A stretch of 64,000 nt of DNA. It comes from a virus (lineage: Duplodnaviria; Heunggongvirae; Uroviricota; Caudoviricetes). Of the stretch, positions 30,498 to 60,640 are shown piece by piece. A model generated the notes under the pieces. It had not been told where the DNA came from, did no database searches, and saw only the letters and a program-made list of their open reading frames with translations. The first letter of the stretch is position 1; each line of letters starts with the position of its first letter. The stretch lies in IMG/VR virus record IMGVR_UViG_3300031555_004779; one strand, written 5' to 3'. A program made the translations under genes and the position numbers.

Positions 30498-30519
30498 AAA
30501 ATTTTCTTCAAAAAAAGTA

Positions 30520-42108: not shown

Positions 42109-42561
42109 ATGATAGATGTTGCAGCATATGCGCTATTAAAACGCGGCATTACTACCGCAGGTTCCACCACTCCAGGAGTAGGCATCGTTGATGCCAAAAT
42201 TGAAAATGGTCACCTAATCCTAATCATGAGTGATGGAAGCACTATTGACGCTGGCCTATTACCTACTGGCGCCGGCATAGATGACTCTGTGGTTTCTACT
42301 GAAACTACATGGTCAAGTGCGAAAATAGAAGAATACCACACTCAACATGTTGAAATCCGTGCTGCTGAAATTGCGCAAGAAGTCGCCGAACGCGCTTTAA
42401 GTGAATTTGTACCCGAACTAATTAGTGGTGGTACCGCAGAAAGCACAATAGAGTACATTGAAGGTGGTTCTGCCTCAGATGTAGAGCCAGATGTACTTTA
42501 CGGTATGGATGCCGATGAAGAGCCCGTAGGCGTAAAATTTGATTTTTCCGAGGAGGCGTAA
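42109..42561 (+). CDS. hypothetical protein (150 aa, Gly/Thr-rich N-terminus, acidic C-terminus)
   Basis: ORF track entry. Confidence 0.4.
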   Translation: MIDVAAYALLKRGITTAGSTTPGVGIVDAKIENGHLILIMSDGSTIDAGLLPTGAGIDDSVVSTETTWSSAKIEEYHTQHVEIRAAEIAQEVAERALSEFVPELISGGTAESTIEYIEGGSASDVEPDVLYGMDADEEPVGVKFDFSEEA

Positions 42562-42564: not shown

Positions 42565-42792
42565 ATGGCACGTTTAATTGAACTAGAAAACCAAAAACAA
42601 TGCGCCTCTTGGGGCTATCAAGGTGAAAGTGGCGCAACAATTTTAATCGCTTCTATAAGCGAATTTGCAGCCCAGTATCCAACTGGAAAACCCAATGTAA
42701 TTTTCCAACGTCATGATGGTCATCCTTATATGCACAAATTTATTCTTTCAGGGGAAAATCTCCTTATAGAATTAAATTCTACTGATACTTAG
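42565..42792 (+). CDS. hypothetical small protein
   Basis: ORF track entry. Confidence 0.35.
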   Translation: MARLIELENQKQCASWGYQGESGATILIASISEFAAQYPTGKPNVIFQRHDGHPYMHKFILSGENLLIELNSTDT

Positions 42793-42846
42793 CAATGGGG
42801 AAAGTGCGAAGTTCAAATTAGCTGGCTCGTCAGCGGTAACAAAGTA

Positions 42847-43263
42847 ATGAAGAAGAAAATTTATTCTTCCTACATTTTGCCTGGCGATCTTGAAGGTGAC
42901 CTTCCACTTACAGACGAAAGTATTTTAGCTTTGGATAATTTGGAAGCTTATGTAGAAGAAGCAAAATTGCTATTAAATGAAGCAAAACAATACGCCGCTG
43001 AACTGGTATTTGTTGAAGCATTACCCGAAGTTGGTGATAACACTAAACTTTATATTGACAAAGCAACTTCTTCTATGTATTATTGGAGTGGCGATGCCTT
43101 TATGCTTCTCAATCCTTCTTATGAATGCGATTGTGACGATAAAAAGCCTAGTCCGCCACCACCACCTCCACGTCCACCACACATTCCTTGTCCGCCAATA
43201 ACAGGCGATGGACAAGAGATTCTTTATGGTGGCAATGCTTTCTTTCCACAAGCAGAAGACTAA
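42847..43263 (+). CDS. protein with a proline-rich segment (PSPPPPPRPPHIPCPP)
   Basis: ORF track entry. Confidence 0.4.
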   Translation: MKKKIYSSYILPGDLEGDLPLTDESILALDNLEAYVEEAKLLLNEAKQYAAELVFVEALPEVGDNTKLYIDKATSSMYYWSGDAFMLLNPSYECDCDDKKPSPPPPPPRPPHIPCPPITGDGQEILYGGNAFFPQAED

Positions 43264-43307
43264 TAAATAAATCCCCACAACTAGATTAACGCAAGCAGGT
43301 GAATAAA

Positions 43308-44756
43308 ATGGCGACAGTTTTAAGCACTAAAATCATTCTTCGTAATGATACTGCGGCTAGTTGGTTAGAACACAATCCAATTCTATCTGCCGGCGAATTT
43401 GGTATTGAATGGGATACTGGTTTATTTAAAATCGGTAACGGTACAACCACCTATAACAAATTACCATATGCCGGCGCTCCTAGTGCAAGCGGTTCTGCTA
43501 TTCTAGATGCTGATGGATATACCTTAAGCGCGAATCTAGAACGCAAACTTGGCTTAAACAAATGGGGCATAGAATACCACAAATGGGTTGGCGACCACTA
43601 TGAGCTTGTTCCCGTTGATGCGAACAATCCATGGAAAATCAACTTACAACCAAAAGTCGCGCAAAACCCAACCACTGGTACCTTAGAGCTTGCTTGGTTT
43701 GAACCTTCCCCAATTTCTGCGGAAGACATTTCTGGCGCAGTTTCCGATTTACAAGAAACTGTTAATACTCTAAGTACTACTGTTGGTACAAAGGAAGATG
43801 CCGCAGGAACTGATAGTGTTTTTGGCGCAATAGCAACGCTAGACCAAAAACATAACGAACTTGCCGCGATTTCACTTCCTCTCACCGGCGGCCAAATGAC
43901 AGGTGAACTTCTACTTGCAGACGGTTCTCCTGCAGTTTCTGAGAAAACTGTAGATGATAAGATTACCTATGCTGTCGTAAACATGGGCACACTAAAACGC
44001 AAAGTAGTTACTGTTCTTCCTGATGTGGCTGATGCTGATGAGAACACAATTTATATGATAAAGAAGGGAACTTCTTTATTAAGCAATAGTTACGATGAAT
44101 ATTTCTTAATTGAAGGTACATTTGAATTAATTGGCGATACGTCTGCCGATTTGGAAGATTATATCAAAAAGCCATTAACATTCACCGAAGGAAATATTGC
44201 TTTATTTAGTAATGATGGTTCAATTAAAGATGCCGGCATTACTGCTAAAGATATATCAGAACATATTGCTGACAATGTTCTTCACATTACTGCCGAAGAA
44301 CGTGCTCGTTGGAACTCTGGAACTGGTTCTGGCGAAGCTCCAATTTATATTTTCGGTTCTGGCTTACAAGCTGACAATACTGGCGCAGTAACTTTAAAAG
44401 TTGCTGAAGAAAGTAATGGTATTACCGTTAGTGATGACGGTATTGCTCTTGCTCTTGCAACCAATGAATCCGCTGGCGCGATGTCCGCTGCACAATATTC
44501 TAAAATTTCTAATATGAAAGATATTTAGGGTGTTGTTCTTGGTGATATTGTTGAAGCAGCTTTCGACCCAAAGAATCGTGTACATATTCCAATGGCAAAT
44601 TCTGTAAGTCCTGGTGTTGTAGTTTCCTCTAGTGCTACCAACTCTATTGCAGTTGATATGCTTTCTGGTACCATGACCGTAAATACAATTGAAACAAGTA
44701 AACTTGTAGTTCCTGAAGGACAAGAGCTAATCTTAAATGGTGGCTCTGCTTCTTAA
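43308..44756 (+). CDS. tail fibre protein 1. The conserved N-terminal anchor domain is shared with five other genes. One in-frame TAG at 44526.
   Basis: RBS AGGTG. N-terminus IILRNDTAASW..P.L..GE.G.E.DTG..KIGNGTT.YN.LPY. The frame continues past the TAG to TAA at 44754. Confidence 0.55.
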
Positions 44757-44783
44757 TTTTATTAAAAAGTGAGGTAAAAATTT

Positions 44784-46535
44784 ATGGCTGATAATCATAC
44801 CCTAAATACTCGCATTAAACTTAAATATGACAGTTATGAAAACTGGATTGCAAAGGACCCTGTCCTACTAGCTGGCGAAGTTGCCATTGCTACCGTTGCT
44901 TCTAATGATGCTGAAGGCAAGCCTGGCTTTCAAAACCTACCCAACATTGTATTCAAGGTTGGTGACGGAAGCAGCAAATACAGCGCCCTAAAGTTCGTAT
45001 CTGCTCTAGCTGCTGACGTACACAGCTGGGCTAAGGCTGCTGATAAGCCTGTTTACACCGCCGCTGAAATTGATGGAATCAAGGCTTATATTGATGGCGT
45101 AATTGGCGATCACAGTGAAATTCAAGATACTGATACCAAGTATATCATGGAAACTGTAGATGGCAACACCTATAAGTACGGTCTATATTCTACCAACAAG
45201 GCTGGCGAAAACAAGACTCTAGTATATACTCTAGACCTAAGTGGTGTAGACGGACGTCTAGATGATCTAGAAGCCGCTGTTGGTGAATCTGGTAAAGTTT
45301 CTCAACAGATTGCTGCTGCTATTGAAGCTATCGCAGTTGCCGAAACCAACCTTGGCACCACTGAAATGTATTCTGGTTACAAGCAGGTTGGCGGTATTGT
45401 AACTCTAAACAAGCGTACTCTAGGTATTGCTAACGTAGATGGCCTACAGACCGCTCTAGACGCTAAGCAGGACAACTTAGTCTTCGAGACTGCTTATGAT
45501 GCTGCTACCAATAAGGTTGCCACTATGGCTAACGTTACTGGTGCTATCGACGCTCTAGATAAGGCCGATGCCGCTGTTGAAAAACAGTTTGTAACCGCCG
45601 TATCTGAAGAAAATGGTATCATCACTGTAAGTCGTGCTGCTCTAAAGGCTTCTGATATTCCTAATATCACTCAGAGCCAGGTAGACGGCCTAGAAGATGC
45701 CTTAGATGCTAAGCAGGATAACCTAGTAATTGCCGACAATTACAATGCCGAAAGCAATAAGGTTGCTACCGAAGCTACCGTAACTAAGGCTGTTGCTGAC
45801 TTAAATGGTGCTATGCACTTTGAAGGCGTTGCGCCTAAGGATCCCACTACCTTCACCAACAAAGAAAATGATGTTTATAGTGGTGGCGACGTCTTACTAT
45901 TCGGTTATGACGAATATGTATATGATGGAAATACTTGGCACAAGCTAGGCAACGAATCCATTTATAAGCTAAAGAGCGAAGCTGCTACCGAGCACGAAGC
46001 TATGCAAGGTGAAATTGATGCTCTAGAAGCTAATAAGCAGGATAACCTTGGCTTTGAAGGTACCTACAACAAGGACACCAACAAGGTTGTAACCAAGTCT
46101 GCAATGACTGATGCCATCACCTCTGCTGTTGACGCCCTAGATAAGGCTGATACTGCCGTTGAGCATCAGTTCGTAACTAGCGTAAGCGAAGAAAATGGTG
46201 TTATTACTGTTCTACGCGCTCAGCCTGCTATCGCTGACGTAAATGGTCTAACCGAACGTCTAAGCGGTATTGACAGCGAGATTGCTAAGAAGCAAGATAT
46301 TGTTGGTTTTGCCGATGATTACAATAAGGACACCAATAAGGCTGCGACCGTAGCAACCGTAACCAATGCTATCAATGCTCTAGACAAAGCTGATGCTGCT
46401 GTTGAAGGACAGTTCGTTACTGCTGTACCTCAGGAAAATGGTATTGTAACCGTTTCTCGTGCTGCTGTAACCACTGACCACATCCAGCAAGGCACCAAGC
46501 CTTTCATTCTTGATTGTGGCACTGCCACTCTTTAA
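44784..46535 (+). CDS. tail fibre protein 2 (coiled-coil and repeat rich). CTA is the main Leu codon.
   Basis: N-terminus IKLKYDSYENW..P.L.AGE......KVGDGSSKY. A hairpin terminator (46547-46578) follows. Confidence 0.55.
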   Translation: MADNHTLNTRIKLKYDSYENWIAKDPVLLAGEVAIATVASNDAEGKPGFQNLPNIVFKVGDGSSKYSALKFVSALAADVHSWAKAADKPVYTAAEIDGIKAYIDGVIGDHSEIQDTDTKYIMETVDGNTYKYGLYSTNKAGENKTLVYTLDLSGVDGRLDDLEAAVGESGKVSQQIAAAIEAIAVAETNLGTTEMYSGYKQVGGIVTLNKRTLGIANVDGLQTALDAKQDNLVFETAYDAATNKVATMANVTGAIDALDKADAAVEKQFVTAVSEENGIITVSRAALKASDIPNITQSQVDGLEDALDAKQDNLVIADNYNAESNKVATEATVTKAVADLNGAMHFEGVAPKDPTTFTNKENDVYSGGDVLLFGYDEYVYDGNTWHKLGNESIYKLKSEAATEHEAMQGEIDALEANKQDNLGFEGTYNKDTNKVVTKSAMTDAITSAVDALDKADTAVEHQFVTSVSEENGVITVLRAQPAIADVNGLTERLSGIDSEIAKKQDIVGFADDYNKDTNKAATVATVTNAINALDKADAAVEGQFVTAVPQENGIVTVSRAAVTTDHIQQGTKPFILDCGTATL

Positions 46536-46609
46536 TTAAATAATATGCCGACCGACTGATGTCGGTCGGCATTTTTTTCATATATAATTCTATTAAAAGG
46601 AGAATGCAC

Positions 46610-49600
46610 ATGAGTAGAAAATTAATCACCAAGATTATTCTACGCAACGATGTAACTCAAAATTGGTTACTCGTTGCCGATACCATGGTACTCCTACGCG
46701 GTGAAATTGGTTTAGAATATACTGATACTGGCGTAAAAATGAAAATAGGTGACGGCATCTCTACATGGGGACAGCTTCCTTATTTTGTTTCTGGCGCTGG
46801 CACAGCCGAACTACCTGAGAATTTTACTTGGGCTGATTTACTAGGTGTAGCCGCTGAAGGAGAAACAACCTCCACTACAAATATTGGTTTAGTAAAACCC
46901 GCTTTAGCAGATAAAGTTGATGTTAATATTTTAAATGCTAATGCTGAAATTATTGATACTAATATTTTTGACCTAACTGAAAAAATTGGTTCTTTAACTA
47001 CACTTGTTGAAGAAAATGTCAATCAAATTCGTGCTACTTTAGCTGATTATGAAGGACGCATTGCGGCTCTAGAAAACAATAGTCCTGAAATTGATTCTGC
47101 TGAATTAGAAGCATTAAAAACTTCTGTTGCAGAATTAACTGAACGTGTTGTAATTCTTGAAAATCGCCAACCTACTGAAGGTGGTACTGTTGATTTCACT
47201 GAAATCAATAATGCGATTGCAGCCTTAGACAAGCGCATTGTAGCTATAGAAGAATCTTTTGTTAAAAAAGAAGAACTAACTTCTGTAAAAGATGAATTTA
47301 ATAAAACTCTTGAAAATTATACTACCAGAGAAGATTTAAGTTCTGTAAAAGAAATTGTTTACGGAAATACCGAGTGTATTACTGAAGTTGAAAATTTCGC
47401 TAAAAAGTTAGAAGAACAAGCCGGCCGTGTTAATGTATAGCTAAATGAAATGACAGAAAAAGACCTTTCTCTTGAACGTCGTATTACCACTCTTGAAGAA
47501 AATGGCGTTCCAGGTGATGGCGGTTCTGCCGAAGTAAGTCCTGAAACTCTTGCTCAAATTGAAGCTAATACTGCTAATATTGCTACTCTAACTGAAACTG
47601 TTGGTGGATTTGACGAACGTATTACTACTGCAGAAGAAAATGCCGCGACCGCTTTAACCTTTGATGAGCGCATTACCGCTGCTGAAACTACTGTCGCTGG
47701 TTATGATACTAAAGTTAATGCTGCCGTAGAAGCTACTCAAGCTATTACTGGTATGCAAACTACCATTAATGAAACAACCGCTCGTATGGAAGCAGTTGAA
47801 ACAGAAATGGAAGCTACCAACACTAATGTAGAAGCTATGGGTACTCGTGTTGAAGCAGCAGCTTCTGTCGTAGAAGAATTTGATGGCCGCGTAACTACCA
47901 CCGAAGCTCGTTTAGAAGAATTAATTGAAGCTTCTTCTAATGGCGAACTTGACGGTGTAGCCGAAGTAGTTGATGCTCGCGTAGCAACTGATGGTACCAC
48001 CTATGAAAACTTAGGTTCTCACGTTCGTGCTTTAGGTGATGAAATCGCTTATGTAAAGAACAATACCGCTGATTTAGTTGGTGGAAAACTTGTTGATGGT
48101 CTTTCTTATGAAGGATATATGCTACAATTAACTGCCGGCGGTAATCCTGTTGGTAACGCTGTAGAAATCAAGGGTGGTTCTGGTACTGGTACTGGTGGAG
48201 CAGGCACTTATACTGCCACTTTAACTAACCTACTAGATAGCCGTATGATTTCTGTTCCTAAAGGCGAATCTGTTGTACTAAAGTACAAGTATACTTCTGT
48301 TGATAACGAAGGGACTGACGATGGCGATGGCATCGGTGCAATTTCTGTTGAAAACGTTATCAAAGCTCGCTTCCCTGTAGCCCAAGGTGAAGTTGAAACA
48401 GATATTACTAATTACTTAGTAAATGGTACCAACACTGTTAAATTAACTGTTGAAAACTCTGAAGGTACGGTAAAGACTATTATTTATACCGTTACTGTTA
48501 TTGCTTTGACTTTAACCACTCCCTTTGCTGAAATGAATACTTATTCTGGCGATGTGGGATTCCAATATACAATTACTGGTAATGGTGCTAAAGTAATTCA
48601 TTTCATTTTAGATGACGATTATGAAGTTGGCACTGAAACTATCACTGCTGTAAATGCTACTCGTACTTTCACTATTCCAAAGCAAACTGATGGTGCTCAT
48701 ATTTTCAGTGTTTATGCCGAAACTGAAGCTGAAGGTACTATCATTCGTTCTGACGAATTACGTCTCGGTATGATGTGGACCTCTAGTGAAATGACTGAAA
48801 AAGCAGTTCTAGTTAATTATAACGGCGGTGAAAAGCAATAGGGTGAAATTATTCAGATTCCTTATTTAATATATGATCCATTCTCTCAAAATGCTGATGT
48901 ATTCTTTAGCATTTATAATGAAGATGGTTCTTTATATTATGAATCTGAGTCTAGTATTGTAGACCAGACTGCTAAGATTTGGTCAGTACAAGATTTCCCT
49001 GAAGGAAACACTGTTTTCCGTGTAACTGCTGGTAATAAAGAAGATACCGCGGAAACTAATGTATATGAAGAAGTTGTTATTAAGATTAATCCTTCTTCTT
49101 TCACTAATACTATAATTGATGATAACCTCCTACTAGACTTCAACGCTCGCAATAAGACTAATTATGTTGAAAACCCGGGCCACTGGGAATACAATGGTAT
49201 TGTTGCTGAATTTGACAACTTCAACTGGGCAGAAGCCGATGGTTGGGTAACCGACAAAGATGGCGCAAGCGTACTACGCTTCCTACCTGGCGGCAAGATG
49301 GTTATTCCTTTCAAGCCTTTTGAAAGTGATATTCGTAACTCCGGTTACACCATTGAAGCAGAGTTTGCAACCAATAATGTTCGTGACTATGATAGCGTTG
49401 TAATTGACACTTACAGTGGCGGTCGTGGTTTGATTATTCGTTCTCAGAACGCAGCTCTAAACTCTGAACAGTCTGGTGTAGGTGTACAGTTCAAAGAAGA
49501 CGCACGTATTCGTTTGACTTTCGTAGTCGAACAGAACACTCTAAATCGTTTTGTATATGTTTATATTGATGGTATCCTTTGCGGCATCACTCAATATTCA

Positions 49601-52600
49601 CTAACTGACAACTTCAAACAGACCGACCCAGTTGATATCACTATTGGCGCTGAAACTTGTGGTCTTGACCTATATAATCTACGTTTCTATGGCCGCGCTT
49701 TTTCTATTGATGAACAACTCAACAACTTCATGTGCGACCGTTCTACTCTAGAAGAGCGTATTGCTGTTCGCGACCGCAATGCTATTACTGATGATGCTGG
49801 TAAGATTACTGTAGACAAGATTAGTCTTTCTATCCCCTACATGATTATGGAATGTCCCGAACTTCCTCAATTTAAGGGTGATAAGAAAAAGAAGATGTCT
49901 GTAAAATATGTTGATGGATTACATCCCGATTATAGTTTCGAGGCAACTGGATGCGAATTTGACGTACAGGGTACTTCTTCTGCTGGTTATCCCGTAAAGA
50001 ACTTTAAAGTAAAATTAAAGAGTGGATTAACCTATACTGCTTCTGGCGAATATGCTGACGGTTGGTTATTTGATAAAGAAAACTCTCTACCCACTGAAGT
50101 ATTCTGCTTAAAAGCTGACTACGCTTCTTCTGAACACGCTAATAACGTAATGTTAGTTGACTATTATGATAAGGTAAGCCCATATCGTATGCCTCCTCAG
50201 CAGATTGATGACCGTGTTCGCAGTGGCGTAAATGGTAAGGCTATTATTGTTTTCTGGCACAATACCGATACTGGTGAAGTAACCTTCTAGGGTTGCTATA
50301 ACATGAATGATGATAAGTCTAATGAACAGACCTTTGGTTTCGTAGATATTGATGTTACTTCTTTAATTCCTGAACCTCGCATTGAATGCTGGGAATGGTG
50401 TAACAACAATAATGACCTAGTTCTTTTCCTTGATGACGCCGCATTTGACCAAACTAAGGTTGATGAAGACGGTAAGCCCTATCCCGCTTGGCAGGATGAC
50501 TTTGAACCTCGTTTCCCAGACTTAGATGACCATATGTATGGCGAACAAGAGGGCGAACTTGATAAACTACGTCGTATGGTTAGTTGGGTAGTTTCCACTA
50601 ACCAAAAAACAGCAACCAATAATATTATTGCTCCAGTAACCTTACCTCATTATTTAACTGGTGTACCAACTGAATATGCAGTTGATTCTGCTGAATATAG
50701 ATTAGCGAAGTTCAAGTCCGAATTTGAAGATTACTTTGAAATGGATGCAATGACTTTCTACTATATCTTCACCGAAGTATTCCTCATGGTTGATAACCGT
50801 GCTAAGAACATGTTCTTAACCACTTTTGATGGCGATCATTGGTTCCCAATTCCTTACGATATGGATACTGCGATTGGTATTAACAATGAAGGTGCTCTTG
50901 CCTTTGAATATCACCTTGAAGATACTGACTATGTAGATGACGAGAAAGTATACAATGGTCAGGATAGCGTACTATGGATTAATTTCCGTATGTGCTTCCC
51001 CTCTGAAATCCGCACTATGTATCAAGAACTTCGTTCTAACAATGAGAATCCTTTCTCTTACTAGGCTATTTACGAAAAGATGAAGAAACACCAAGAAACT
51101 TGGCCTGAAGTTGCTTGGAACTGGGATGCTCAGTTTAAGTATCTTGAGCCTTTCCATCTTGGTTCTAACAACCTTGCCATGCTACAAGGTAACAAAGCTT
51201 CTCAGCGAGATTGGTGGCTATATAATGCCTTTAAGTATCGCGATAGTAAATATCAGGCTGGTGAGTCTTTAACCAATTATATTCACCTTCGTTTATATGA
51301 AGCCGGTGAAATCAATATCGTTCCTTATTCTCACTTATACACTCGTGTTAAGTTTGGTCAAGCCAAAGACGAGACTCAAAGAACATTCCGTGACCAAACC
51401 GCTTGCTTCACTACTGAAGGTATTGCTGACTTAAATGACCTTGAAACACACATTTATTCTGCTGACCGTCTAGTAGACATCGGCGACTTAAGTGCTTTAA
51501 AGATTGGTTATTGTGACGTTTCTCCTGCTATTAAACTTGGCCGACTAATCCTCGGTAGTGAAGCAGATGGATATACCAATCCCAACTTAAAGACCTTAAA
51601 CATTGGTCGTAATGAATTACTACAAGAGATTAATGTAAGTAACTGTACTGGTCTTGGTACTCCCGATAAAACTGGTGCTATTCCTACCGCCGTTATTGAC
51701 GCTAGCAAGTGCCCCAGCCTTGAAGTACTAAAGGCAAAGGGAACTTCTGTACTCGGTGCTAACTTTACTGATGGTGGCCGTCTACGTGAAGTATATCTAC
51801 CTGGTACTGTAACTTCCATTACTCTACGTAATCAGCATAACCTAGAAACCTTTGAACTAGAAAGCTACGCTAATATTTCTACCATCTTAATTGACAATAC
51901 CGCTAATATGCCTATTGAAGAAATGGTAGCAAATGCCGGCAAACTTGACCGTGTTCGTATTACTAATTAGTCTTGGAATGCCACTGATGAAGCTTCTCTA
52001 TTGGCTACTGTCCGTAAGTTAGCTGCTTGTGACGGTTTAAGTGCTGATGGTTCTACTACATTAGAAAATCAGCCTATCGTAACTGGTCGCGCGCATGTAG
52101 CTTCTATTAGTGAAGCAGCTCTTGAAGAAATCAATACTCTATTCCCAGAACTAATTGTTGTTGTAAATGGAGTACCAAAACTCTTTATGCGCTATCTAAA
52201 CTACGACAATACTCTACTCTATCGTTATGTAATTAACGCTGGTGAAGATGCTATTGATCCAATTGCGAAGGGTTATATCAGTGCTCCCGATCGCGCGGAT
52301 ACTGAAACTGCAGAATATACCTTTATTGGTTGGTCTGAACTACCCACTAACGTACAGAAAGCTTATAACATTGTTGCTAAGTATGATGGACGTTTCCGCG
52401 TAGATTTTACTAATCTTGAGGGTGAAGTTATTAATTCTCAATGGATTCTTGATGGCGAAGATGCGGTAGAACCCGTTTCTAGTGGCTTGGTAAATGCTCC
52501 TGTTAAAGAAAGTACAGCACAATATGATTACGAATTTGCTGGTTGGGATCGTAGCTTTATTAAAGTTGAAGAGCCTTTGGTTCTAAAACCTCTATTCAAC

Positions 52601-53533
52601 CCAATTCTTCGTAGTTATAAAGTATTCTTCTATAATGATTCTACATTAATTGAAGAACACACTATCTTCTATGGTAGTACTGCTACTTTCACTGGAGATA
52701 CTACTAAAATTAAGAAAATCATTGGCGGAGAAGAAAGTATTTATTATGAATTCACTGGTTGGTCACCAAGTCCTGATAAACCAATTATTAGTAATACTTG
52801 GTATTATGCTGAATTCTCATTTAATGGCTATATTACTGATAGTTGGGAAACTATCGCTGCTGCCGCTAAAGCCGGGGATGTAAGTGCTTATGGCTTAGGC
52901 GGACGTAAGATTTTAGAATATAGTGTTAACGGAGTAAGTTATTCCAAAATTGAACTTGAAATTGTAGGAAAAAATCATGATATTCTTGCAAAAGAAGATA
53001 GTTCCTATAACGGTGGTTCAGGAAAAGCCGCTTTAACATTTATTGCAAAATTAATAGGTGATGAAGCCCGTATTATGAACCAAACTCAGCATTCTATCGG
53101 TGCTAATAGCTCTCTAAATACTGGCGGCTGGGCAGTTTCTGATATGCGTCTATGGATGCAGAATACTCTTTGGGTAGCAATGCCCGCTGAATTACAAGCC
53201 GCTATCAAACCAGTCATTAAAAAAAGCGATAATGGTTTCTTCGTTTCTACTATTCGTGAAACTGAAGACACATTATGGTTGCCTTCTGATCGTGAACTTA
53301 ACTGCGAAAATACTGGCTTGGTTCTCGCTGGACAGGGCGAACCGTATCCTGTTTATACTGACGCAGCTAGTCGCAAGAAATAGAATAAGGGCGGTGGCTT
53401 AAAACTATATTGGACTCGTTCTACTGGTCGTGAAGGATAGCATTATTATCGTTACATTGATAGCCAAGGTAACGGTGGTAATCTAGGCGCGGCTTCTCAA
53501 AACCTTGGTGTAGCCTTTGGCTTCTGTATCTAA
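46610..53533 (+). CDS. giant tail fibre/tail spike protein (about 2307 codons). The frame is continuous only if at least eight TAG codons are read as sense.
   Basis: Track ORFs 46559-47440, 47450-48841, 49298-50290, 50303-51064, 51080-51970 and 52001-53383 are all in one frame, each joined by a single TAG. The 48842-49297 stretch is open with no ATG. The terminal stop is TAA at 53531. The start was set at ATG 46610 after AAAGGAGAATGCAC. The N-terminus carries the shared anchor motif. Confidence 0.55.
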
Positions 53534-53547
53534 GGAGGAAAACTAAT

Positions 53548-53907
53548 ATGTTCTATAAAGTAATGTTTAACAACATGGTCGTTGACCTCCTTACCGAGGC
53601 ACGCTGGGTTCGTTATCTTCCTAATTCCAAACGCTTGGTTGCCACTGATAGCCAAGCGGCTAATGGAATTATGGGCAGCGACCATGATACTGTATATCAT
53701 TTGTTTGGCAAGCCTTATACTTTTGATAAAGAAGTAAAAACTGTTGAGGTAATTAAGATTGACGGTGTAGAATATGAAAAACTACGTGGCCAATTTATGT
53801 TACAGCAACAGGAAAATGAAAGCATGAAGAAAGAAATTTGCTCTTTAAAAGAGCAATTAAATTCTCAAGAAGCTTTGTTACAAGCTATTTTAGCTAAACT
53901 ATCTTAA
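53548..53907 (+). CDS. possible tail fibre assembly or chaperone protein (C-terminal coiled coil)
   Basis: RBS AAGGAGGAAAACT. Positioned directly after the fibre gene. Confidence 0.35.
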   Translation: MFYKVMFNNMVVDLLTEARWVRYLPNSKRLVATDSQAANGIMGSDHDTVYHLFGKPYTFDKEVKTVEVIKIDGVEYEKLRGQFMLQQQENESMKKEICSLKEQLNSQEALLQAILAKLS

Positions 53908-54049
53908 TAAATAGGGGAGAATTTTCTCCCCTATTTTTTTTGATTGTTAAGAATAAAATGCTTTAATGAATTGTTTTTTTTAACACATTATAAATGAGAG
54001 TAATCTCTTTTAAAAATTCCTTCTTATTTATAACATGGAGGTTAAACAT

Positions 54050-56869
54050 ATGGCATAGAAAGTTCTTAAAACTCGTATAAAACAAAGAATAGATACTGCC
54101 GAAAACTGGGCTCAAATTGCTGAAGCTCCATTAGAAGGCGAAATTATTATTTATAAATCAACAGACGATACAATCCCTGATAAAATAAAAATTGGCGATG
54201 GCGCGACTACCGCTTCTAATTTACCTTTTATTACCGATGTTGATACTAATAATCTTTCCGCCGGCGTTCGCATTCCAGAGAGCGACACTAATTCTCTCGG
54301 CTCTGTTACTCAGGGTATTTATTGGGAAAATGGTCGTCCTCAATTAATGTCTTACACTTTAGGTAAGAGTGTTCCTTCCAACGCAGTATTTACTGATACA
54401 AACACCAAAGTTACTTCTGCCGCTAATCACTATGCACCACAGACAGATAGTGCTTCTGCTTTAAATGTTGATGCTTCTAGTACAACTGCGGCAACTTGGG
54501 GTTCTACTAGTTTGGTTACTGGTGTTAATCTAACTCGTGATGCTAAAGGACACGTAACTGGCATGACAGTTGATTCAATTAAGATGCCATCCGACCCAAC
54601 TTATACTTTACCTACAGCAACTTATAATACTCTTGGTGGTGTAAAACCTGCTTACACTTCAACTGGTTCTGCTACGCTAACTACTGCCGCTGCAACGAAT
54701 ACTACTACTCCTACCATTCAAAAGAAATCTACTACTTCATCTCGTTATTATGGCGTAGAAGCAGACGTAAATGGTATTTTATTTGTTAACGTTCCTTGGA
54801 CTGGTGATATTACTGGTGTAACTGCTGGCGATGGTTTAACCGGTGGCGGTTCTTCTGGTTCCGTAACGCTAAAAGTTGGCGCTGGCGCTGGTATTACTGT
54901 TAGTGCTGACGCAGTTGGACATACTAACAGTGTAACTGCGGATACCGCTTCCGAGGGTGGCTCTGCTCGTACTTTGGCTCATGGTGGTACTTTTAATATC
55001 CCAAGTGTTACTTATGATACTGAAGGTCATATCACAGCAAAAGGTTCTACCACCTTAACTCTACCAAGTCTTCCCAACGCAGGTACAAGTGCGGGCGTTG
55101 TAAAGTCTGGTGGCGTAGCTACTATTGCTGATGGTGTAATTACTGCTGTTAGCGGCGCTAGCAATGCAGATACCGCAGGCACTGCTAATAAAGTAGCTAA
55201 TTCTCTATCAATTCAAGGCAATGGAACTGGTATTACTTTTGATGGTTCTGCGGCTAAAACTGTAAATATTAAAGGTTCTGGCACCGTTTCTGTAACTGGC
55301 AATACCAGTGGTGTAATTACTATTACTGGCTCAGCCCATCCTACTGCTTTAAAGAACCCAAATGCGTTGACTATAGATGTAAATGGAACTTCTACTTCTT
55401 ACGACGGTTCTTCTACTAAGACTGTAACTATTAATGCCGCGGCTTTAGGTTTATCCAGTGCTATGCAATTTGGCGGCGTTGTAACTTCTTTACCAACATC
55501 AAGTACTGCTGGTACTGTTGTACTAATGGGTAATAAGGAATATGTATACGATACCAATGGAAATTGGGTTGAACTTGGTGACGAAGGAAGTCATGCTTTA
55601 AAAACAATTAAAGTTACTGCTAATGCTGGTTTGACTGGTGGTGGCACTCTTGCTTCTGATATGACTATTGGTCATGCTAATAGCATCACCGCGGGCACCG
55701 CGCAAGGTAGCAGTGGTACATTAAGTCATGGCGGAACATTTACTATTCCTAAGATTACTTATGATGCTTATGGTCATATTACTGGCGCGTCTACTACAAC
55801 TTATACATTACCTGCTGATAGCAATACTCACTATACTGCTAACTTATATTTAGGTGCTTCTGGCGCTTCTTCTAATGCTACTACCGCAGTAAGCAATCCT
55901 TACTTAGTATTACGTGAAAATAGCACTACAAGAAACAATATTCAATTAAAAGGTAGTTCTGGCATTTCTGTAAGTGGTGCAAGCGGAGTGGCAACTATTG
56001 GACATACCAACTCTGTTACCGCTGCTACCGCATAGGGTTCCGCAACTGGCACTTTAAGTTTTGGTGGAACATTTACAATTCCCACTATTACTTATGACGC
56101 TCAAGGACATATTACTGGTAAGGGCACTACAACTCTTACTATGCCAGCGAACCCCAATACCGATACTCACTGGACAGCCAACTTAATTACTGGCGCTTCT
56201 GCCACAGCGACCGCTAATGCGGCAGCATCTGATGGTAGCGTTTATTTGAACTTAATTGAAAATGGCAGTGTTCGCAATTCTCATCTCATTGATGGCGCGG
56301 GTACTGTTACTGTTACTAGTGATACAAATGGCAAAATTACTATTACTGGTTCTGCGCATCCAACAGTTAATAATGCCAAGATTACCCTTAGTGCTGGTAC
56401 TGGTCTAACTGGCGGCGGAGATTTTACTCTAAATCAATCTGGTGCAGAGACAATTTCCTTTGGACATAGTAATAGTGTTACTGCTGGCACAGCGCAAGGC
56501 GGTAGTGGCCAGTTAAGTCATGGTGGTACTTTTACTGTACCTACTATTACCTATGACGCACAAGGTCACATTACTGCTAAAGGTACTACTACTTATACCT
56601 TACCTACTGACAATAACACAGATACCAAAGTAACTCAGGCAGCGGCAATTGCTACTAATGGTAATTATCCTGTTCTACTTGCTTATAGTACATCTACATC
56701 TTCTGTAACTAATACTGTAAATAAGAGCACAACTTTGTTATATAATCCTTCTACTGGAACATTAAGTGCTACCAAGTTCAGTGGTAATGGTAATTCCTTA
56801 ACAGATATTAATGCAGTCCAATTAACTCTTGCTGATAGCGATGAATTGATTCTTGACTGTAATGATTAA
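54050..56869 (+). CDS. tail fibre protein 4 with four internal repeats of about 50 aa. TAG-recoded.
   Basis: RBS GGAGGT, then ATG at 54050. TAG at 54056 and at 56033. Repeat unit GH(T/A)NS(V/I)TAGTAQGSSGTLSHGGTF(T/N)IP.ITYDA.GHIT. A TAG in one repeat aligns with a CAA (Gln) codon in its sister repeats. Confidence 0.55.
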
Positions 56870-56948
56870 TAAAACTTAAAGGGCTGGCTGGAATGATGCC
56901 AGCTCTATTTTCCAATATCTGGAATGATGATATAAAGGAGATGTTATT

Positions 56949-58478
56949 ATGGCGACAAATACGTTAAAAACACGTATTCAACATAAAAATGGTTCAGCTT
57001 CTGATTGGTCTTAGGCAACAACGTTCGTACCTCTAAAAGGCGAGCTTATTATATATAATGATGCTACTACACCAAAAATTAAGGTTGGTGACGGTGCAAC
57101 ACTAGTAGAAAATCTACCTTTTGTAGGTGCTTCTATTACAATGAATGGAGCAATAGCCTCCAGTCCAAGTTTTTACGCACCTACAACCGCTGGTACAGCG
57201 GGGCAGGTATTAAAATCTAATGGTTCTGGCGCTCCTACTTGGGCGGCAGAATACAGTTATACTTTACCAACCGCCACATCATCAGTTCTTGGCGGTGTAA
57301 AAGTAGGTTCTAATATTACAGTATCCAGCGGTACAATTAGTTTGACTAAAGCGAATGTTACCGCGGCATTAGGTTATACACCACCAACAAGTGATACAAA
57401 TACAACCTATTCTGCTGGCACTGGTATTAGTTTAAGTGGTACTACATTCTCAAATAGTGGTGTTCGTTCTATTTCTACTGGTTCAAGCAATGGTACAATT
57501 AGTGTAAATACTAATGGCACAAGTGCCAATGTTGCGGTAAAGGGATTGGGTAGCGCGGCGTATCTAGCTAGTACGGATTTGATTCATTCTGTATCTTTGG
57601 CTACAGACGGTACTCTTAGAGTAAATAATGGTAGTGGTACTTCTATTCTTTCTTTAGGTAATTATTATTTAAAGCTTTCTGGTGGTACAGTAACTGGGAA
57701 TATCAACATTCAAGGTACAAGTTATCCATCTTTTTGCTTGCAACCAACTACTGCTAACAGTGCTGGAACATATACTGGAGGCTTCTTTGAAGGAAGTTAT
57801 GTAGATAATGTAAGTATGTGGGTATGGACTGATAGAAATAATAGCGCTAAATCTCGTCGTGGTTTAGTTTTATATGGTTATGCTTAGTAGACAAATGATA
57901 ATTATGCTTTAGCCTTACGCAGATGTGATACCTCTGGTAATTGGCAGTCGGATTTAAATATACTTCATAGTGGTAATTTTTCTTCTTACGCTTTATCATT
58001 ATCTGGCGGCACAATTTCTGGTAATTTAACTGTTACAGGCACTATTACTGGCACAAAAGTCTACGGTGCCGTTTGGAATGACTATGCCGAATATCGCTCT
58101 CAAAACGAAACTATCGAACCTGGCTACATCACCTATTGTGATGACGATGGCAAATTGAAGAAAACTGCCAAACGTCTCCAAAAATACGAAGGCGTTGTGT
58201 CCGATACCTTTGGTTTCGCAATTGGTGAAACTGACGATTGCAAAACTCCTCTTGCAGTATCTGGTCGTGCTCTTGTTTACTGCGACCCAGAAGAACACTT
58301 CCACTCTGGTGATTGTGTATGTGCTGGACCAAATGGTTTGGCGTATCGTATGATGAGAGAAGAAATTATTGAATTCCCTGACCGTATTGTTGGTGTTGTT
58401 TCTGAGATTCCAACATATGAAACTTGGGGTACTGGAAATGTAAAAGTTGATGGTCGTATTTGGATAAAAATTAAATAA
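56949..58478 (+). CDS. tail fibre protein 5. TAG at 57010 and a tandem TAG-TAG at 57886-57891.
   Basis: The N-terminal anchor motif is present. The frame stays open through both TAGs into track ORF 58155-58478 and ends in TAA TAA. Confidence 0.5.
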
Positions 58479-58554
58479 TAATACCATTGATTTAATAATA
58501 GAATATTATCCCGCCCAAGTATAAAATTTGGGCGGGAAGTTAAGGAGGATAGTT

Positions 58555-59076
58555 ATGACTTAGAAAAAAATTTTTAGACCAAGAAGGTGTGCAATATCTT
58601 TGGTCTAAAGTGTCTTTGCAAGACTACCCTAATAATGATACTTTAATTGCAGTTTTAAATGCAATTGATGAAACTAAAGCTGATAAGGAAGAAATTCCTT
58701 CAAAAATAAGTCAATTAGAAAATGATTCTAATTTAATGACTCAAGAATAGGCTGATAGCCTAGCCACCAATTACGATGCTGCTGGTTCTGCTGCTCAGGC
58801 GCTAGTAGATGCCAAGGCTTATGCTGATGGTCTTGCTGGTAACTATGATGCTAAGGGTTCCGCCGCGCAGGCCCTAACCGATGCTAAGGCTTATAGTGAT
58901 GGCAATTTAGGTGTTGCTAAGACTTATAGTGATACTAACTTGGCTGCGGCGAAGACTTATAGTGATGGTAACCTAAATACTGCTAAAGCTTATACCGATA
59001 CTGAATTAGCCAAGGTAGTAGCACTATCTACTGAGGAAATTGACGCCGCAATCGCTGCTGCTACTCCTGCTAATTA
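58555..59076 (+). pseudogene. repeat protein (AKAYxDxNL repeats) with a frame break at an A7T5 homopolymer just after the start codon
   Basis: ATG 58555 follows AAGGAGGATAGTT. The long ORF lies in the +1 frame relative to the ATG, after AAAAAAATTTTT at 58564-58575. An in-frame TAG lies at 58747-58749. Confidence 0.3.
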
Positions 59077-59112
59077 ATCAGTTAGTTAATTTGGTTTCGG
59101 TGAGGGATGTTT

Positions 59113-59296
59113 ATGCAAGTTGTAAGACTTTGTTAGAGAAATGACATTGAAGCTAATTGGAAGATTAGTAATCCCGTACTATATATGGGAGAAATCGCAG
59201 TTAGTATTGACGTCAATAATCTCAAAATCGGTGATGGAAAAACCGCGTGGAAAGACTTGCCATATTATATGTAGTCTCTAACCGATGAAGAAATTT
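59113..59296 (+). CDS. stand-alone tail-fibre N-terminal anchor domain (about 60 aa) with two in-frame TAG codons
   Basis: Hand translation gives MQVVRLC*RNDIEANWKISNPVLYMGEIAVSIDVNNLKIGDGKTAWKDLPYYM*SLTDEEILALCK. A hairpin plus T-run terminator follows (59314-59345). Confidence 0.4.
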
Positions 59297-59401
59297 TGGC
59301 GTTATGTAAATAAAAGGGGTGATTATTCACCCCTTTATTTTATTATAAAAATTTGACAAAAAGAAAAAATTATTTTATACTTAAAAGAAAAGAGGTATAA
59401 A

Positions 59402-60487
59402 ATGAGAGTTTCTTGTAATGATTTAAAAAGACAAATAAATAAATATTCTTCTGAGTTAGAAGAAAAATTATCTAATGTATTTTATAGTGGCTCTTATATT
59501 CTTGGTTAGGAAGTCGCAGCTTTTGAAGAAGAATTTTCTTCTTATTTGGATATTAAACATTGTATAGGAGTGGCTAGCGGATTAGATTCTTTAATTCTAG
59601 CTTTTTAGCTTTTAGGAATTGGCGCTGGTGATGAAGTAGTTATGGCGGCGAATGTTTATACAGCTTGTGCTTTAGCTGCCATTAAAAATGGAGCGATTCC
59701 TGTATTAGTTGATTGCAATGAGTATTATAATATAGATGTTTCTCAAATTGAAAAAGTTATAACACCAAAAACAAAGGCTATTTTAGCCGTCCATTTATAT
59801 GGACAAAGTTGCGATATGGATGCTATAATGTCTATAGCAGAGAAATATAATTTATATGTTATTGAGGACTGCGCTCAAGCACATGGTGTGACTTTTAATG
59901 GGAAAAAAGTTGGTACTTTTGGTGATATTGGTTGTTTTAGTTTTTATCCAACTAAAAATCTTGGAGCTTTGGGAGACGGTGGTTGTCTAGTAACGAATAA
60001 TGATGCTATTGCTAAAAGGGGTCGTATTCTTCATAATTATGGCCAAAAAGAAAAAAATATTTTTGATGAAATTGGCATGAATAGTAGACTTGATGAAATT
60101 TAGGCTGGTTTACTAAGAATAAAATTAAAACATTTGGATGAAATGAATAAAGAACGAGAAGAAATTGCTAATTATTATTTACAAGAAATTCAAAATGATA
60201 ATATAAATTTGCCAAAAATACAACCAAAAAGTAGCTGTGTATGGCATCAATTTGTAATTAGTTCTAAAAGACGTGATGAATTAAAAGAATTTTTAAACGA
60301 AAAAAATATAGAAACTCTTATTCATTATCCGTTGCCTTTTTATTTAAACAAAGCTTATAGTTTTTTAAAATATAAATAGGGAGACTTTCCCAATGCAGAG
60401 AAAAAAGTATTGAGTTTACCGATGTTTATTGGTATTAATAAAAGTGAAAAAAAGAAAGTAGTGGAAACATTAAGGGAGTTTAATTAA
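59402..60487 (+). CDS. DegT/DnrJ/EryC1/StrS-family PLP-dependent sugar aminotransferase. TAG-recoded, with four in-frame TAG codons.
   Basis: RBS AAGAGGT. PLP-Lys motif [16 protein letters not shown]. The motif NSRLDEI(TAG)AGLLRIK aligns with the family-conserved NYRMxEIQAAxG, which places Gln at the TAG position. Confidence 0.75.
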
Positions 60488-60640
60488 TTAAATGAATAAG
60501 AAATTTATTTATTCTACATTATTATATTCCGATGATTATATTGAGAACGAAATAAAAAATTTTGTTCTCTTATTTTTTTTACATTTTTATAATTTTGTGT
60601 TATAATAAATCACAAAAGAAAAAAGAAAGTAGGAAAATCT

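Follow-up and report, generated by a model that had tools for sequence, protein, structure and literature searches.

The 64,000-nucleotide stretch of phage DNA analysed here (the window) carries on its plus strand six genes that open with a homologous domain of ~55-75 aa, named below by their starts (g43308, g44784, g46610, g54050 and g56949, or fibres 1 to 5, and a mini-gene at 59113). They lie in a cluster with several smaller genes and terminators, beyond which an inserted cassette follows (Table 1). The terminase, portal and virion-protein genes are on the minus strand, and the fibre cluster runs opposite to the head/tail module at a distance of about 25 kb, with an early-gene region of about 23 kb in between. 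The portals most like the one encoded here are from large Bacillus, Enterococcus and Lactococcus siphoviruses, and its distant relatives include that of phAss-1 (25% identity). The source phage is probably a siphovirus, with a Gram-positive bacterium as its host. Within the 64-kb window no baseplate or docking-hub gene was identified, and a search for a template repeat and a reverse transcriptase gave neither; its only tRNAs are tRNA-Met, Leu(taa) and Lys(ttt).

Table 1. Features of the fibre cluster and its 3' flank (positions in the window)
Feature	Position	Strand	Evidence
Conserved 150-aa protein, cluster head	42109..42561	+	58 homologues
Conserved 232-aa protein, one TAG, poly-Pro tract	42565..43263	+	Syntenic 234-243-aa gene in L059-L062
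Fibre 1 (g43308), 482 aa, one TAG; N-domain 43308-43481	43308..44756	+	Mtd_N 37.5 bits; many PHROG tail-fibre N-terminal matches
Fibre 2 (g44784), 583 aa, no TAG; N-domain 44784-45008 with 18-aa insertion	44784..46535	+	Leave-one-out 38.8 bits; weak Mtd_N
Intrinsic terminator after fibre 2	46545..46572	+	
Fibre 3 (g46610), giant, 2307 aa, six TAG; N-domain 46610-46795	46610..53533	+	Window profile; PHROG
Conserved 119-aa protein	53548..53907	+	51 homologues, always immediately 3' of the giant gene
Intrinsic terminator	53909..53936	+	
Fibre 4 (g54050), 939 aa, two TAG; N-domain 54050-54241	54050..56869	+	Leave-one-out 53 bits
Terminator-like hairpin after fibre 4	56886..56904	+	
Fibre 5 (g56949), 509 aa, three TAG; N-domain 56949-57131	56949..58478	+	Mtd_N 30.1 bits
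"Partner" fibre-like gene	58555..59077	+	
Mini-gene, 66 aa, two TAG	59113..59313	+	Mtd_N 38.1 bits
Intrinsic terminator closing the fibre cluster	59313..59336	+	
Inserted cassette, outside the fibre set	59353..60569	+	

In relatives, the 150-aa gene at the head of the cluster is invariably placed two genes 5' of the first fibre gene, and Pfam and PHROG searches with its product gave no match; the family search with the 232-aa protein gives only a sub-threshold tail-terminator match. Orthologues of fibres 1 and 3 are 71-79% and 79-82% identical, fibre 2 is present in all relatives at a length of 583-590 aa, and fibre 4 is 86% identical to its orthologue in one relative (L068) and mosaic with respect to the others. 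The body of fibre 2 contains a ~65-aa unit repeated about four times and that of fibre 4 Gly/Thr-rich repeats of ~45 aa. The true start of fibre 3 is placed at 46610 because the ATG at 46559 falls within the terminator hairpin; behind the N-domain come a coiled coil, regions of Ig-like and CotH-like type and, at the C-terminus, DUF6273, a C-type-lectin-like domain (PMC10743442). Proteins of Bacteroides and gut phages match residues 548-2076 of fibre 3. The 119-aa protein, for which no Pfam or PHROG family match was obtained, may be a fibre assembly factor. In fibre 5, the C-terminal region has a sub-threshold likeness to the Peptidase_G2 autoproteolytic chaperone domain, and the last 150 aa are common to 55 viral contigs. 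The cassette has a promoter-like site of its own (TTGACA-17-TATACT), encodes a DegT-family aminotransferase (59402-60487, four TAG) and has a terminator at 60543-60569. It is the 3' boundary of the fibre cluster; in L075, which is without it, the mini-gene abuts a homologue of the window from 60543 onwards.

The domain begins at residue 1-3 in all six proteins. When a profile was built from five copies, it recovered the sixth with 39-59 bits (E about 6e-11 to 3e-17; 38.8 bits for g44784, 49.6 for g46610 and 53.1 for g54050), and the six-copy profile, run against all six reading frames of the window, found these six copies and no other. The best of 1000 shuffles scored 6-12 bits and the best unrelated six-frame segment ~6 bits. 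With leave-one-out scores so far above both controls, the likeness of the six N-termini, which had been proposed from the sequence-only reading, is homology and not a matter of composition. The residue pattern given in that reading is present at all six starts in a looser form, g44784 deviating by an 18-residue insertion and the end ...KVGDGSSKYSALKF, and g56949 by K.G where the pattern has R.D. Pairwise identity among the six N-termini is 26-52% over ~50-75 aa (BLASTP), which is low if all of them fit one identical site.

Pfam PF18454 (Mtd_N; gathering score 26.3 bits) is matched above its cut-off by three of the six proteins, fibres 1 and 5 and the mini-protein, and below it by g44784 (14.5 bits), with no match at E<=0.1 in g46610 and g54050. 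These last two are tied to the domain through the window's own profile and through PHROGs, where the N-termini match tail fibre, tail spike and hyaluronidase families and where g46610 and g44784 both match the N-terminus of PHROG 19976. A PDB profile search matched the HylP structures 6x3m, 2yvv, 2c3f, 3eka and 2dp5 at the N-termini (E 4e-9 to 4e-4); HylP structures were the only solved ones retrieved by the six-copy profile, over their residues ~1-57. The Pfam, PDB and PHROG matches thus agree on the HylP-like N-terminal module that had been suggested earlier. The AlphaFold monomer of the mini-protein family is of low confidence (pLDDT 53.6), too low for comparison with a trimeric beta-prism fold.

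Relatives of the cluster, from gut-metagenome phages at 70-85% nucleotide identity, keep fibres 1-3 and the 119-aa gene, and the N-domain fibres downstream (196-1409 aa) differ from genome to genome. Nucleotide homology ends at 46832 in fibre 3 (residue 74) and at 57106-57129 in fibre 5 (residue 53-60). Between fibre 5 and the 803-aa fibre of one relative, only residues 1-68 and 368-509 are common, and the relatives' fibres of 803-1409 aa share with it only the N-domain and the C-terminal domain. The proposed combination of a common N-module with exchangeable bodies is supported by these breaks at the end of the N-domain, and across related genomes the 5' part of the repertoire is conserved and the 3' part varies. 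As far as can be read from sequence, one genome holds several putative receptor-binding protein genes with the same N-module and differing remainders. With the module common to all fibres, bodies could be exchanged by recombination at the 3' end of the module. The downstream parts are mostly unrelated, as had been stated, but repeat motifs of g54050 recur in g56949, and a weak stretch of ~140 aa links g54050 to g44784. The suggestion that they include depolymerase modules was not supported: Pfam detected no depolymerase domain in the window's own fibres, and esterase and pectate-lyase-like bodies are present in relatives only.

What the shared domain does can be approached by analogy. The Bordetella phage protein Mtd is located at the ends of tail fibres (PMC2408619), and small N-terminal domains link receptor-binding proteins to the tail (PMC5380687). 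By analogy with Mtd, the domain would form trimers at the proximal end of each fibre and hold that fibre in place on a docking structure, either of the virion or of another fibre, and by analogy with the three-part design of phage receptor-binding proteins, the unlike bodies and C-terminal domains would supply the binding specificities. We infer in this way the docking function, the virion location, the trimeric state and the adaptor role of the mini-protein discussed below. Alternatively, beta-structured fibres in general might use the domain as an N-terminal cap for trimerisation or folding, their attachment being set elsewhere, for example in the first few residues or in other proteins. Such a cap would suit a domain that is very widespread (18,709 clusters at 50% identity) and rather divergent among the six copies, and the 2-7 tandem copies found in single proteins fit poorly with a pure docking module. 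However, the domain is at the extreme N-terminus of all of the at least 30 fibres examined, the recombination boundaries coincide with its end, separate domain ORFs precede bodies that do not have it, and Mtd is thought to attach through this very domain (PMC10743442); we regard the folding cap as unlikely. The domain is also carried by gp26 of crAss001, which is not resolved.

Some or all of the proteins could, instead of being baseplate fibres, decorate the head, neck or tail shaft, or be non-virion proteins, and the ~23 kb of early genes between the cluster and the tail genes, a weak phi29 head-fibre match in fibre 5 and one PHROG match filed under "head and packaging" point that way. Family matches are mostly to tail fibres or spikes, however, the lectin-like DUF6273 (PMC10743442) and the autochaperone-like C-termini are typical of receptor-binding proteins, and TAG recoding marks late genes, as in the structural module; we consider this reading improbable.

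The mini-gene consists of the Mtd_N domain (59119-59268) and a conserved tail, YYMqSLTDEEILALCK. It had been ended at 59296 and considered a possible remnant; it ends with the TAA at 59313, and conservation of its length, sequence and context together with purifying selection refutes the remnant. Its orthologues form nine clusters at 69-83% identity, every one 66-67 aa long, and 36 of the 66 alignment columns are invariant, including L-T-D-x-E-x-x-A-L-C in the tail. Synonymous sites are saturated, with dN at 0.09-0.21, and dN/dS is 0.06 against L075. An SD-like GAGG precedes the gene in all orthologues. These alignments demonstrate a conserved gene under selection. In six of six independent contexts the partner gene lies directly upstream, and in L070, L072, L073 and L075 the partner C-terminus and the mini-gene form one contiguous homologous block (58745-59313), the mini-gene being inherited as a unit with that C-terminus. 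The partner has an N-module of a different type (KKFLD..G..YLWSK) and AKAYxD repeats in its C-terminus, which ends in ALSTEEIDAAIA; its ATG at 58555 has a good RBS, and an A7 run puts it one base off the frame of the ORF at 58589-59077.

By analogy, the mini-protein is most likely a separately encoded anchor or adaptor: a stand-alone copy of the module, extended by a putative conserved acidic helix ending in Cys, that would join a body without Mtd_N to the same docking sites, as the adaptor of K1-5 and SP6 does. The candidate body is the partner fibre. Against this adaptor view, the partner has no obvious need of an anchor, since it has its own, different N-terminal module. Anchors without bodies recur among relatives, where a 78-aa Mtd_N-only ORF lies 14 nt 5' of a 1020-aa body that is without the domain, and 67-68-aa ORFs that encode only an anchor of the second N-module type overlap an ORF for a 197-aa body. 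The mini-protein could also be a cap or competitor, a trimeric anchor stub that fills docking sites left empty by the long fibres or sets how many of each fibre are mounted. It is the domain with almost nothing added, conserved and under selection, and its gene ends the transcription unit and is followed directly by the terminator, all of which would suit a cap. A general cap, however, predicts neither the fixed pairing with the partner nor block inheritance with the partner C-terminus, the conserved C-terminal helix with its Cys suggests a specific binding partner, and relatives such as L068 have no mini-gene; we give the cap little credence and favour the separate anchor. More speculatively, and as a possibility that we would hold only tentatively, the 66-aa protein may belong to a free-standing anchor-only family (Mtd_N plus the helix T-x-E-E-I-x-A-L-C), so that together with similar 70-78-aa proteins and the 67-68-aa ORFs of the second type, fibres would be built non-covalently from separate anchor and body, or their mounting regulated. 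If this were true, anchor-only subunits would allow receptor-binding bodies to be swapped without recombination inside a gene.

All of these readings depend on how TAG is translated. In-frame stops in the six genes are 14 TAG, 0 TAA and 0 TGA, and since every interrupting stop is TAG, the fibre genes are long ORFs only with TAG as a sense codon. Orthologues have CAA or CAG opposite the window's TAG at 12 of 21 orthologous positions. Of the two TAG codons of the mini-gene (8 and 54), codon 8 is Gln in all orthologues, and within an internal repeat one copy has TAGTAQGSSGTL where another has TAATA*GSATGTL. The structural module is likewise interrupted by TAG only, one ORF of at least 1847 aa holding 58 of them, and the relatives of the fibre cluster are recoded too. 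In-frame TAG only, in late genes and with Gln in homologues, establishes by sequence comparison the TAG-to-Gln recoding of the cluster; the sequence-only reading had the six starts right and overlooked the genes' dependence on it. A suppressor tRNA with a CUA anticodon is absent from the window, beyond which the genome extends, and such tRNAs are missing in some recoded phages (PMC10607447). That the ORFs are decaying pseudogenes cut by true TAG stops, with the mini-gene a remnant, would follow from the standard code, which breaks the genes, and from a window without a suppressor tRNA, but is extremely unlikely and effectively refuted by 14 TAG beside zero in-frame TAA or TGA, the same bias in the structural module with its ORF of 58 TAG, the Gln codons at TAG sites in orthologues, the recoded relatives, and the kept length and dN/dS of ~0.06 of the mini-gene.

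In summary, a large gut phage that reads TAG as glutamine in its late genes quite likely has, from 42.1 to 59.3 kb of the window, a cluster of accessory fibre (receptor-binding protein) genes, with five fibres and a 66-aa gene carrying a paralogous Mtd_N/HylP-type N-domain as anchor module, unlike bodies that are exchangeable, and the mini-protein as an adaptor. The cluster illustrates how at least five distinct fibres for host binding could be mounted on a single kind of attachment module in a large uncultured gut phage and be reshuffled from strain to strain. This bears on the prediction of host range and on the engineering of phages whose receptor-binding proteins can be exchanged. Because annotation with the standard code would fragment these genes, TAG-recoded phages have their fibre repertoires counted too low. 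With its constant fibre-gene partner, the 66-aa anchor-only gene offers a small, testable clue to the way in which fibres are attached to virions in this group.

Several known systems share parts of this arrangement. The streptococcal prophage hyaluronidases HylP1/2/3 (2c3f, 2yvv, 3eka, 2dp5, 6x3m) are matched over their N-terminal ~55 residues, whereas their catalytic triple-stranded beta-helix has no match here; the six genes have no Pfam hyaluronidase match, and none is a hyaluronidase by sequence. Mtd of Bordetella phage BPP-1, the founder of Pfam Mtd_N, has the same N-terminal domain family, although its chain was not retrieved by the six-copy PDB profile search at E<=1. The layout of fibre 3 mirrors that of Mtd, which combines an attachment module at the N-terminus with a binding domain of lectin fold at the C-terminus (DUF6273 in fibre 3, PMC10743442); Mtd differs in being 381 aa long and diversified by a retroelement. 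In phAss-1 ("Phassvirus"), as here, TAG-to-Gln recoding is concentrated in virion genes, and the receptor-binding fibre is divided over two ORFs (PMC10607447). It differs in having suppressor tRNAs and is only distantly related, and the paper on it describes no multi-copy Mtd_N cluster (PMC10607447).

The closest functional precedent for an anchor-only gene, whose role here is hypothesised, is found in the podoviruses K1E, K1-5 and SP6, where a separate adaptor carries the tailspikes and does the job of the tailspike N-terminal anchor (PMC5380687). That adaptor is of another fold family and much larger, and serves podovirus tails with two spikes. For the cluster as a whole, the nearest parallel is in the Rhodococcus equi phages ReqiPoco6 and ReqiPepy6 (gp001-gp008), in which five to six neighbouring fibre or spike genes open with the same domain family; their GenBank notes read "N-terminal domain similar to P-SSM4 tail fiber N-terminus". 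Their C-terminal parts include pectin lyase, SGNH esterase and hyaluronidase, bodies unlike those described here, and they differ further in their actinobacterial host, standard code, 78 kb genome and the absence of an annotated domain-only gene. Since the annotation of ReqiPoco6 gives this N-terminal domain to six genes (gp001, 002, 003, 005, 006 and 008), the type of cluster is one that was already known.

Under the standard genetic code, the region from 43 to 59 kb yields fragments only. The frames that open at the six starts proposed by the sequence-only reading are long and are broken by TAG alone, with no in-frame TAA or TGA; named by start coordinate, g43308 has one in-frame TAG, g44784 none, g46610 six, g54050 two, g56949 three and the mini-gene at 59113 two. 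In an internal repeat of g54050, one copy has TAGTAQGSSGTL where another has TAATA*GSATGTL, which points to glutamine as the meaning of TAG. In orthologous genes of related metagenome contigs, CAA or CAG occupies 12 of 21 positions where the window has TAG, and the reverse comparison, of TAG codons in the relatives against the window, gave 8 of 14. TAG is recoded to glutamine in the fibre genes, and the gene lengths in the table were computed accordingly. Translation on this basis, with alternative ATGs excluded, confirmed all six starts: ATG 46559 was ruled out for the giant gene because it falls within a terminator hairpin, and ATG 54035 for fibre 4 because it belongs to a GGAGG ribosome-binding site. 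The 3′ end of the mini-gene, previously placed at 59296, is corrected to 59313.

Features of the fibre region, its genomic surroundings and related contigs (L-numbers denote related contigs; all other positions refer to the window)
Feature	Position	Strand	Length	Remarks
Fibre 1	43308-44756	+	482 aa	
Fibre 2	44784-46535	+	583 aa	
Fibre 3 (giant)	46610-53533	+	2307 aa	
Fibre 4	54050-56869	+	939 aa	
Fibre 5	56949-58478	+	509 aa	
Mini-gene	59113-59313	+	66 aa	
Inserted cassette	59353-60569			3′ of mini-gene; absent from L075
DegT/DnrJ/EryC1-family aminotransferase	59402-60487			4 in-frame TAG; own sigma-70-like promoter-like site and terminators
FolD-like gene	61220-61999			3′ of DegT cassette
Open reading frame, probably tape measure protein	5541 to beyond left window end	minus	at least 1847 aa	58 TAG codons
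tRNA cluster Met-cat, Leu-taa, Lys-ttt	30421-30870			within early-gene region
Mtd_N-only ORF	L072 869-1105 (also L073, L074)		78 aa	tail EPVTREDIDAICGVV / TREDIDAICGVV
Fibre-like gene without Mtd_N	L072 1120-4182		1020 aa	14 nt 3′ of 78-aa ORF
Second N-module sites	58555-58740; L063 19381-; L070 10262-; L075 4525-			shared N-module
Second N-module sites, further	L072 8149-8355; L073 6333-6536			shared N-module

The N-terminal similarity among the six genes proved to be real. Pairwise BLASTP of the first 56-80 residues gave 26-52% identity for every pair, and in leave-one-out tests against 1400 six-frame segments of the window a five-copy profile recovered the sixth copy at 39-59 bits (E 6e-11 to 3e-17). 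The best unrelated segment scored about 6 bits, and 1000 shuffles of the left-out sequence reached 6-12 bits at best. A profile of all six copies finds exactly six in the window, with eight invariant columns (M1, W, G-E, K, G.G and L). By these comparisons, the six modules are evidently homologous. The Pfam family Mtd_N (PF18454, major tropism determinant N-terminal domain) scored above cut-off in g43308, g56949 and the mini-gene and weakly in g44784, and was not detected in g46610 or g54050. Many PHROGs families match at their N-termini, with annotations of tail fibre, tail spike, minor tail and hyaluronidase. Against the PDB, the six-copy profile matched the first ~57 residues of streptococcal HylP1-3 (6x3m, 2yvv, 2c3f, 3eka, 2dp5), and no other match was convincing; designed ‘Pizza’ beta-propeller blades also matched weakly. 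A profile of the mini-gene family matched 18,709 protein clusters at 50% identity, some of which have the domain in tandem. Many public proteins (P0119, P0120, P0123 and others) contain two to seven tandem Mtd_N-like units, and the unit of ~40 aa may be able to build repeat architectures besides N-terminal caps.

Megablast of the 43-60 kb region against GenBank phages gave no match, and neither fibre 1 nor the mini-gene family had close relatives in IMG/VR scans. Relatives were found through two small TAG-free genes of the cluster (42109-42561 and 53548-53907), on contigs of 25-180 kb from ENA, Logan and JGI gut metagenomes. They are also TAG-recoded, with at most 15 TAG codons per fibre gene, and in the 5′ half of the cluster their nucleotide identity to the window is 70-85%. 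The 150-aa and ~240-aa genes are conserved in all of them, as are fibres 1 (476-482 aa) and 2 (583-590 aa), a 119-aa gene and the giant fibre. On the 3′ side of the 119-aa gene, the repertoire varies by genome, with fibres of 938-1058, 949, 1272 and 1409 aa, short 196-aa proteins and proteins of 619-803 aa, and every variable fibre there begins with the Mtd_N domain. Nucleotide homology breaks off just past the domain in the giant fibre (46832, residue 74) and again at 57106-57129, residue 53-60 of fibre 5. Only residues 1-68 of fibre 5 are common to the relatives' 803-1409-aa fibres (57-64% identity), one of which also shares the C-terminal 140 residues of fibre 5. Since homology breaks at the domain end, this comparison of fibre repertoires, with its conserved 5′ set and variable 3′ set, shows that bodies have evidently been exchanged on a common N-terminal module, as a mosaic exchange at the module boundary. 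Other viral contigs have three or four Mtd_N-headed genes in a row.

The bodies behind the domain are diverse. That of fibre 2 consists of about four ~65-aa repeats, and fibre 4 has Gly/Thr-rich repeats. Fibre 3 contains a long coiled coil, a region (residues 548-2076) homologous to large Bacteroides and gut-phage proteins, a CotH-like stretch (sub-threshold) and, at its C-terminus, a DUF6273 domain; DUF6273 has been called C-type-lectin-like and is described as one that diversity-generating retroelements target (PMC10743442). Such a retroelement acting on this end was rejected, as the window holds no template-like repeat; YxDD motifs occur only within the giant fibre itself and in one virion protein. 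The C-terminal domain of fibre 5 resembles the Peptidase_G2 autoproteolytic chaperone (sub-threshold) and is common to many large viral contigs. Neither fibre 5 nor the giant fibre had a match in PDB sequence searches. The depolymerase modules envisaged in the sequence-only reading were not detected among the window's own fibres; the equivalent cluster of a relative encodes a GDSL esterase and a pectate-lyase-like beta-helix protein. In several of the contigs L062-L067 (for example L063, 6285-7295), an insert of about 1 kb breaks the giant fibre gene at window ~50879-50888 and carries either an ORF of 153/186 aa or one for a 242-aa GIY-YIG endonuclease. Past the insert, the relatives match the window again from 111 nt 5′ of their annotated second giant ORF, and both junctions share 10 nt. 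This insert looks like an intron with a homing endonuclease, but the split genes had no intron match in Rfam; the window's own giant gene is uninterrupted at ~50880.

With TAG as glutamine, the mini-gene encodes MQVVRLCQRNDIEANWKISNPVLYMGEIAVSIDVNNLKIGDGKTAWKDLPYYMQSLTDEEILALCK. Among 5.8 billion proteins searched, nine clusters matched at 69-83% identity, all of 66 or 67 aa and all already annotated as PF18454. In the alignment, 36 of 66 columns are invariant, including the tail L-T-D-x-E-x-x-A-L-C. Between the window copy and the four orthologues for which DNA was available, synonymous sites are saturated and dN is 0.09-0.21; the closest pair has dS 1.43, dN 0.090 and dN/dS 0.06, and two near-identical copies differ by three synonymous and no non-synonymous changes. 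Codon 8, TAG in the window, is CAA in all four orthologues, and codon 54, also TAG, is CAA or GAA. An SD-like GAGG precedes the gene in all orthologues. Because of this conservation, the dN/dS, the glutamine-aligned TAG codons and the SD-like GAGG, the mini-gene is evidently a translated gene under selection; its constant length and invariant tail further argue against the earlier suggestion that it is a remnant, which is rejected. An AlphaFold2 monomer model of the family was of low confidence (pLDDT 53.6).

In all six independent contexts of the mini-gene (the window, L070/71, L072/74, L073, L075 and L077), a fibre-like partner gene lies 22-47 nt to its 5′ side. The partner is an alanine-rich, fibrous protein of 312-319 aa that starts with MSKKFLDSAGVSTLW and ends in AKxYxD repeats and then ALTTEEIDAAIAAANA. 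In the window, the partner is shorter and has an N-terminal stretch of ~45 residues of other origin, whose nucleotide sequence is 76% identical to that with which a 584-aa gene of L063 begins. The segment 58745-59313, comprising the C-terminal ~110 codons of the partner, the spacer and the mini-gene, forms one contiguous homology unit in all relatives, and the mini-gene is linked to the partner C-terminus. A translational fusion of the two was rejected, since the window has 38 nt from stop to start and L072 has 25 nt, which puts them out of frame by different offsets. The partner has a good ribosome-binding site and an ATG at 58555, whose frame differs by one base from that of the ORF beginning at 58589; an A7 run (58564-58570) lies between the two, and in orthologues M(S)KKFLD... 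is in frame. A sequencing error in the homopolymer could explain the offset, as could a frameshift mutation or programmed +1 shifting. On the 3′ side, the mini-gene is followed by a terminator and small genes in L072-75 and L077, and by an esterase and a beta-helix protein in L070. The DegT aminotransferase and FolD-like genes of the window are metabolic genes in a phage, and L068 is without partner, mini-gene and DegT gene.

Anchor-only genes are not confined to this family. The 78-aa ORF, whose domain is 50-61% identical to those of full-length fibres, represents a second class, and P0246, an unrelated protein of 70 aa, consists of an Mtd_N domain and SSLTNENIDQIFK. In addition, the N-terminal module of the partner, KKFLD..G..LW.....DYPNNE (in its fuller pattern KKFLDxxGxxxLWxxxSxxDYPNNExL), is a second shared N-module, without a family match in Pfam or PHROG. 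In relatives it heads an esterase, a Gp10_C protein and the 584-aa protein, and it also occurs as stand-alone ORFs of 67-68 aa, whose stop overlaps (TAATG) the start of a 197-aa body gene. Given the 78-aa and 67-68-aa ORFs beside their bodies, anchors and bodies are repeatedly split into separate adjacent genes in this phage group.

Recoding extends over the late and structural genes (1-19493 on the minus strand, 42565-60487 on the plus strand). The minus strand at 5.5-19.5 kb encodes the terminase large subunit, portal, virion structural proteins and a sigma-like factor, with zero to six in-frame TAG codons per gene. Between 20 and 42 kb, small plus-strand genes in the standard code are tiled with three tRNA genes, none of the window's tRNAs being a suppressor; a check of 19.5-38 kb, where long ORFs are absent, for rRNA and other RNAs found the three tRNAs only. 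The 440-aa sigma-like protein (18171-19493, minus strand) matches the phage sigma-factor family PHROG 5767 over residues 247-422 in its C-terminal region and a Cys-rich endonuclease-VII-like family over residues 358-431, and may drive late transcription of the recoded genes. The fibre cluster comprises at least four transcription units, with hairpin terminators at 46545, 53909, 56886 and 59313. At its head, the 150-aa protein (42109-42561) and a conserved 232-aa protein directly 5′ of fibre 1 (42565-43263; proline run KKPSPPPPPPRPPHIPCPP, one TAG) form a constant pair, which could be a candidate docking hub. In large siphoviruses of Bacillus, Enterococcus and Lactococcus the portal has counterparts with 25-30% identity, and it also resembles that of phAss-1, a gut phage with TAG-to-glutamine recoded virion genes (PMC10607447). 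These affinities and strong GGAGG-type ribosome-binding sites suggest a Gram-positive host; scans of GTDB genomes for the major capsid protein and the mini-gene family gave no match.

Small N-terminal domains of receptor-binding proteins join them to the tail or baseplate, with whole bodies swapped behind, and in K1E, K1-5 and SP6 a separate adaptor protein takes the place of the anchor domain (PMC5380687). Mtd is located at the tips of tail fibres (PMC2408619) and is thought to attach via its N-terminal beta-prism (PMC10743442). Based on these precedents, we infer that the Mtd_N domain would serve each fibre as its proximal module for attachment and trimerisation, and that the 66-aa protein is most likely a free-standing anchor or adaptor acting with the partner fibre. 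The main alternative is that the 66-aa protein acts as a cap or competitor, as the sequence-only reading had also proposed. The Pam3 cyanophage fibre was rejected as a structural model because its anchor is alpha-helical, and in the crAss001 virion structure the Mtd_N-carrying gp26 is not resolved.

We found no earlier description of a conserved 66-aa anchor-only family with a fixed partner, nor of recurrent anchor-only ORFs beside anchor-less bodies, and the anchor-only family and recurrent split anchors together represent a modest, testable lead. TAG-to-glutamine recoding of gut-phage late genes is already known, and so is this kind of multi-fibre cluster with a shared HylP/Mtd-type N-terminus. 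By tblastn, the domain occurs among GenBank phages in cyanophages, actinophages, Streptococcus prophages, Xanthomonas/Xylella phages and crAss001, with five copies in the Rhodococcus phage ReqiPepy6 and six in ReqiPoco6. In view of this spread and of the Rhodococcus phages, the architecture picked out from the sequence is an established one. Its precedent is ReqiPoco6, whose gp001, 002, 003, 005, 006 and 008 are already annotated as fibres or spikes; the record gives each of them an ‘N-terminal domain similar to P-SSM4 tail fiber N-terminus’, and their enzymatic bodies differ.
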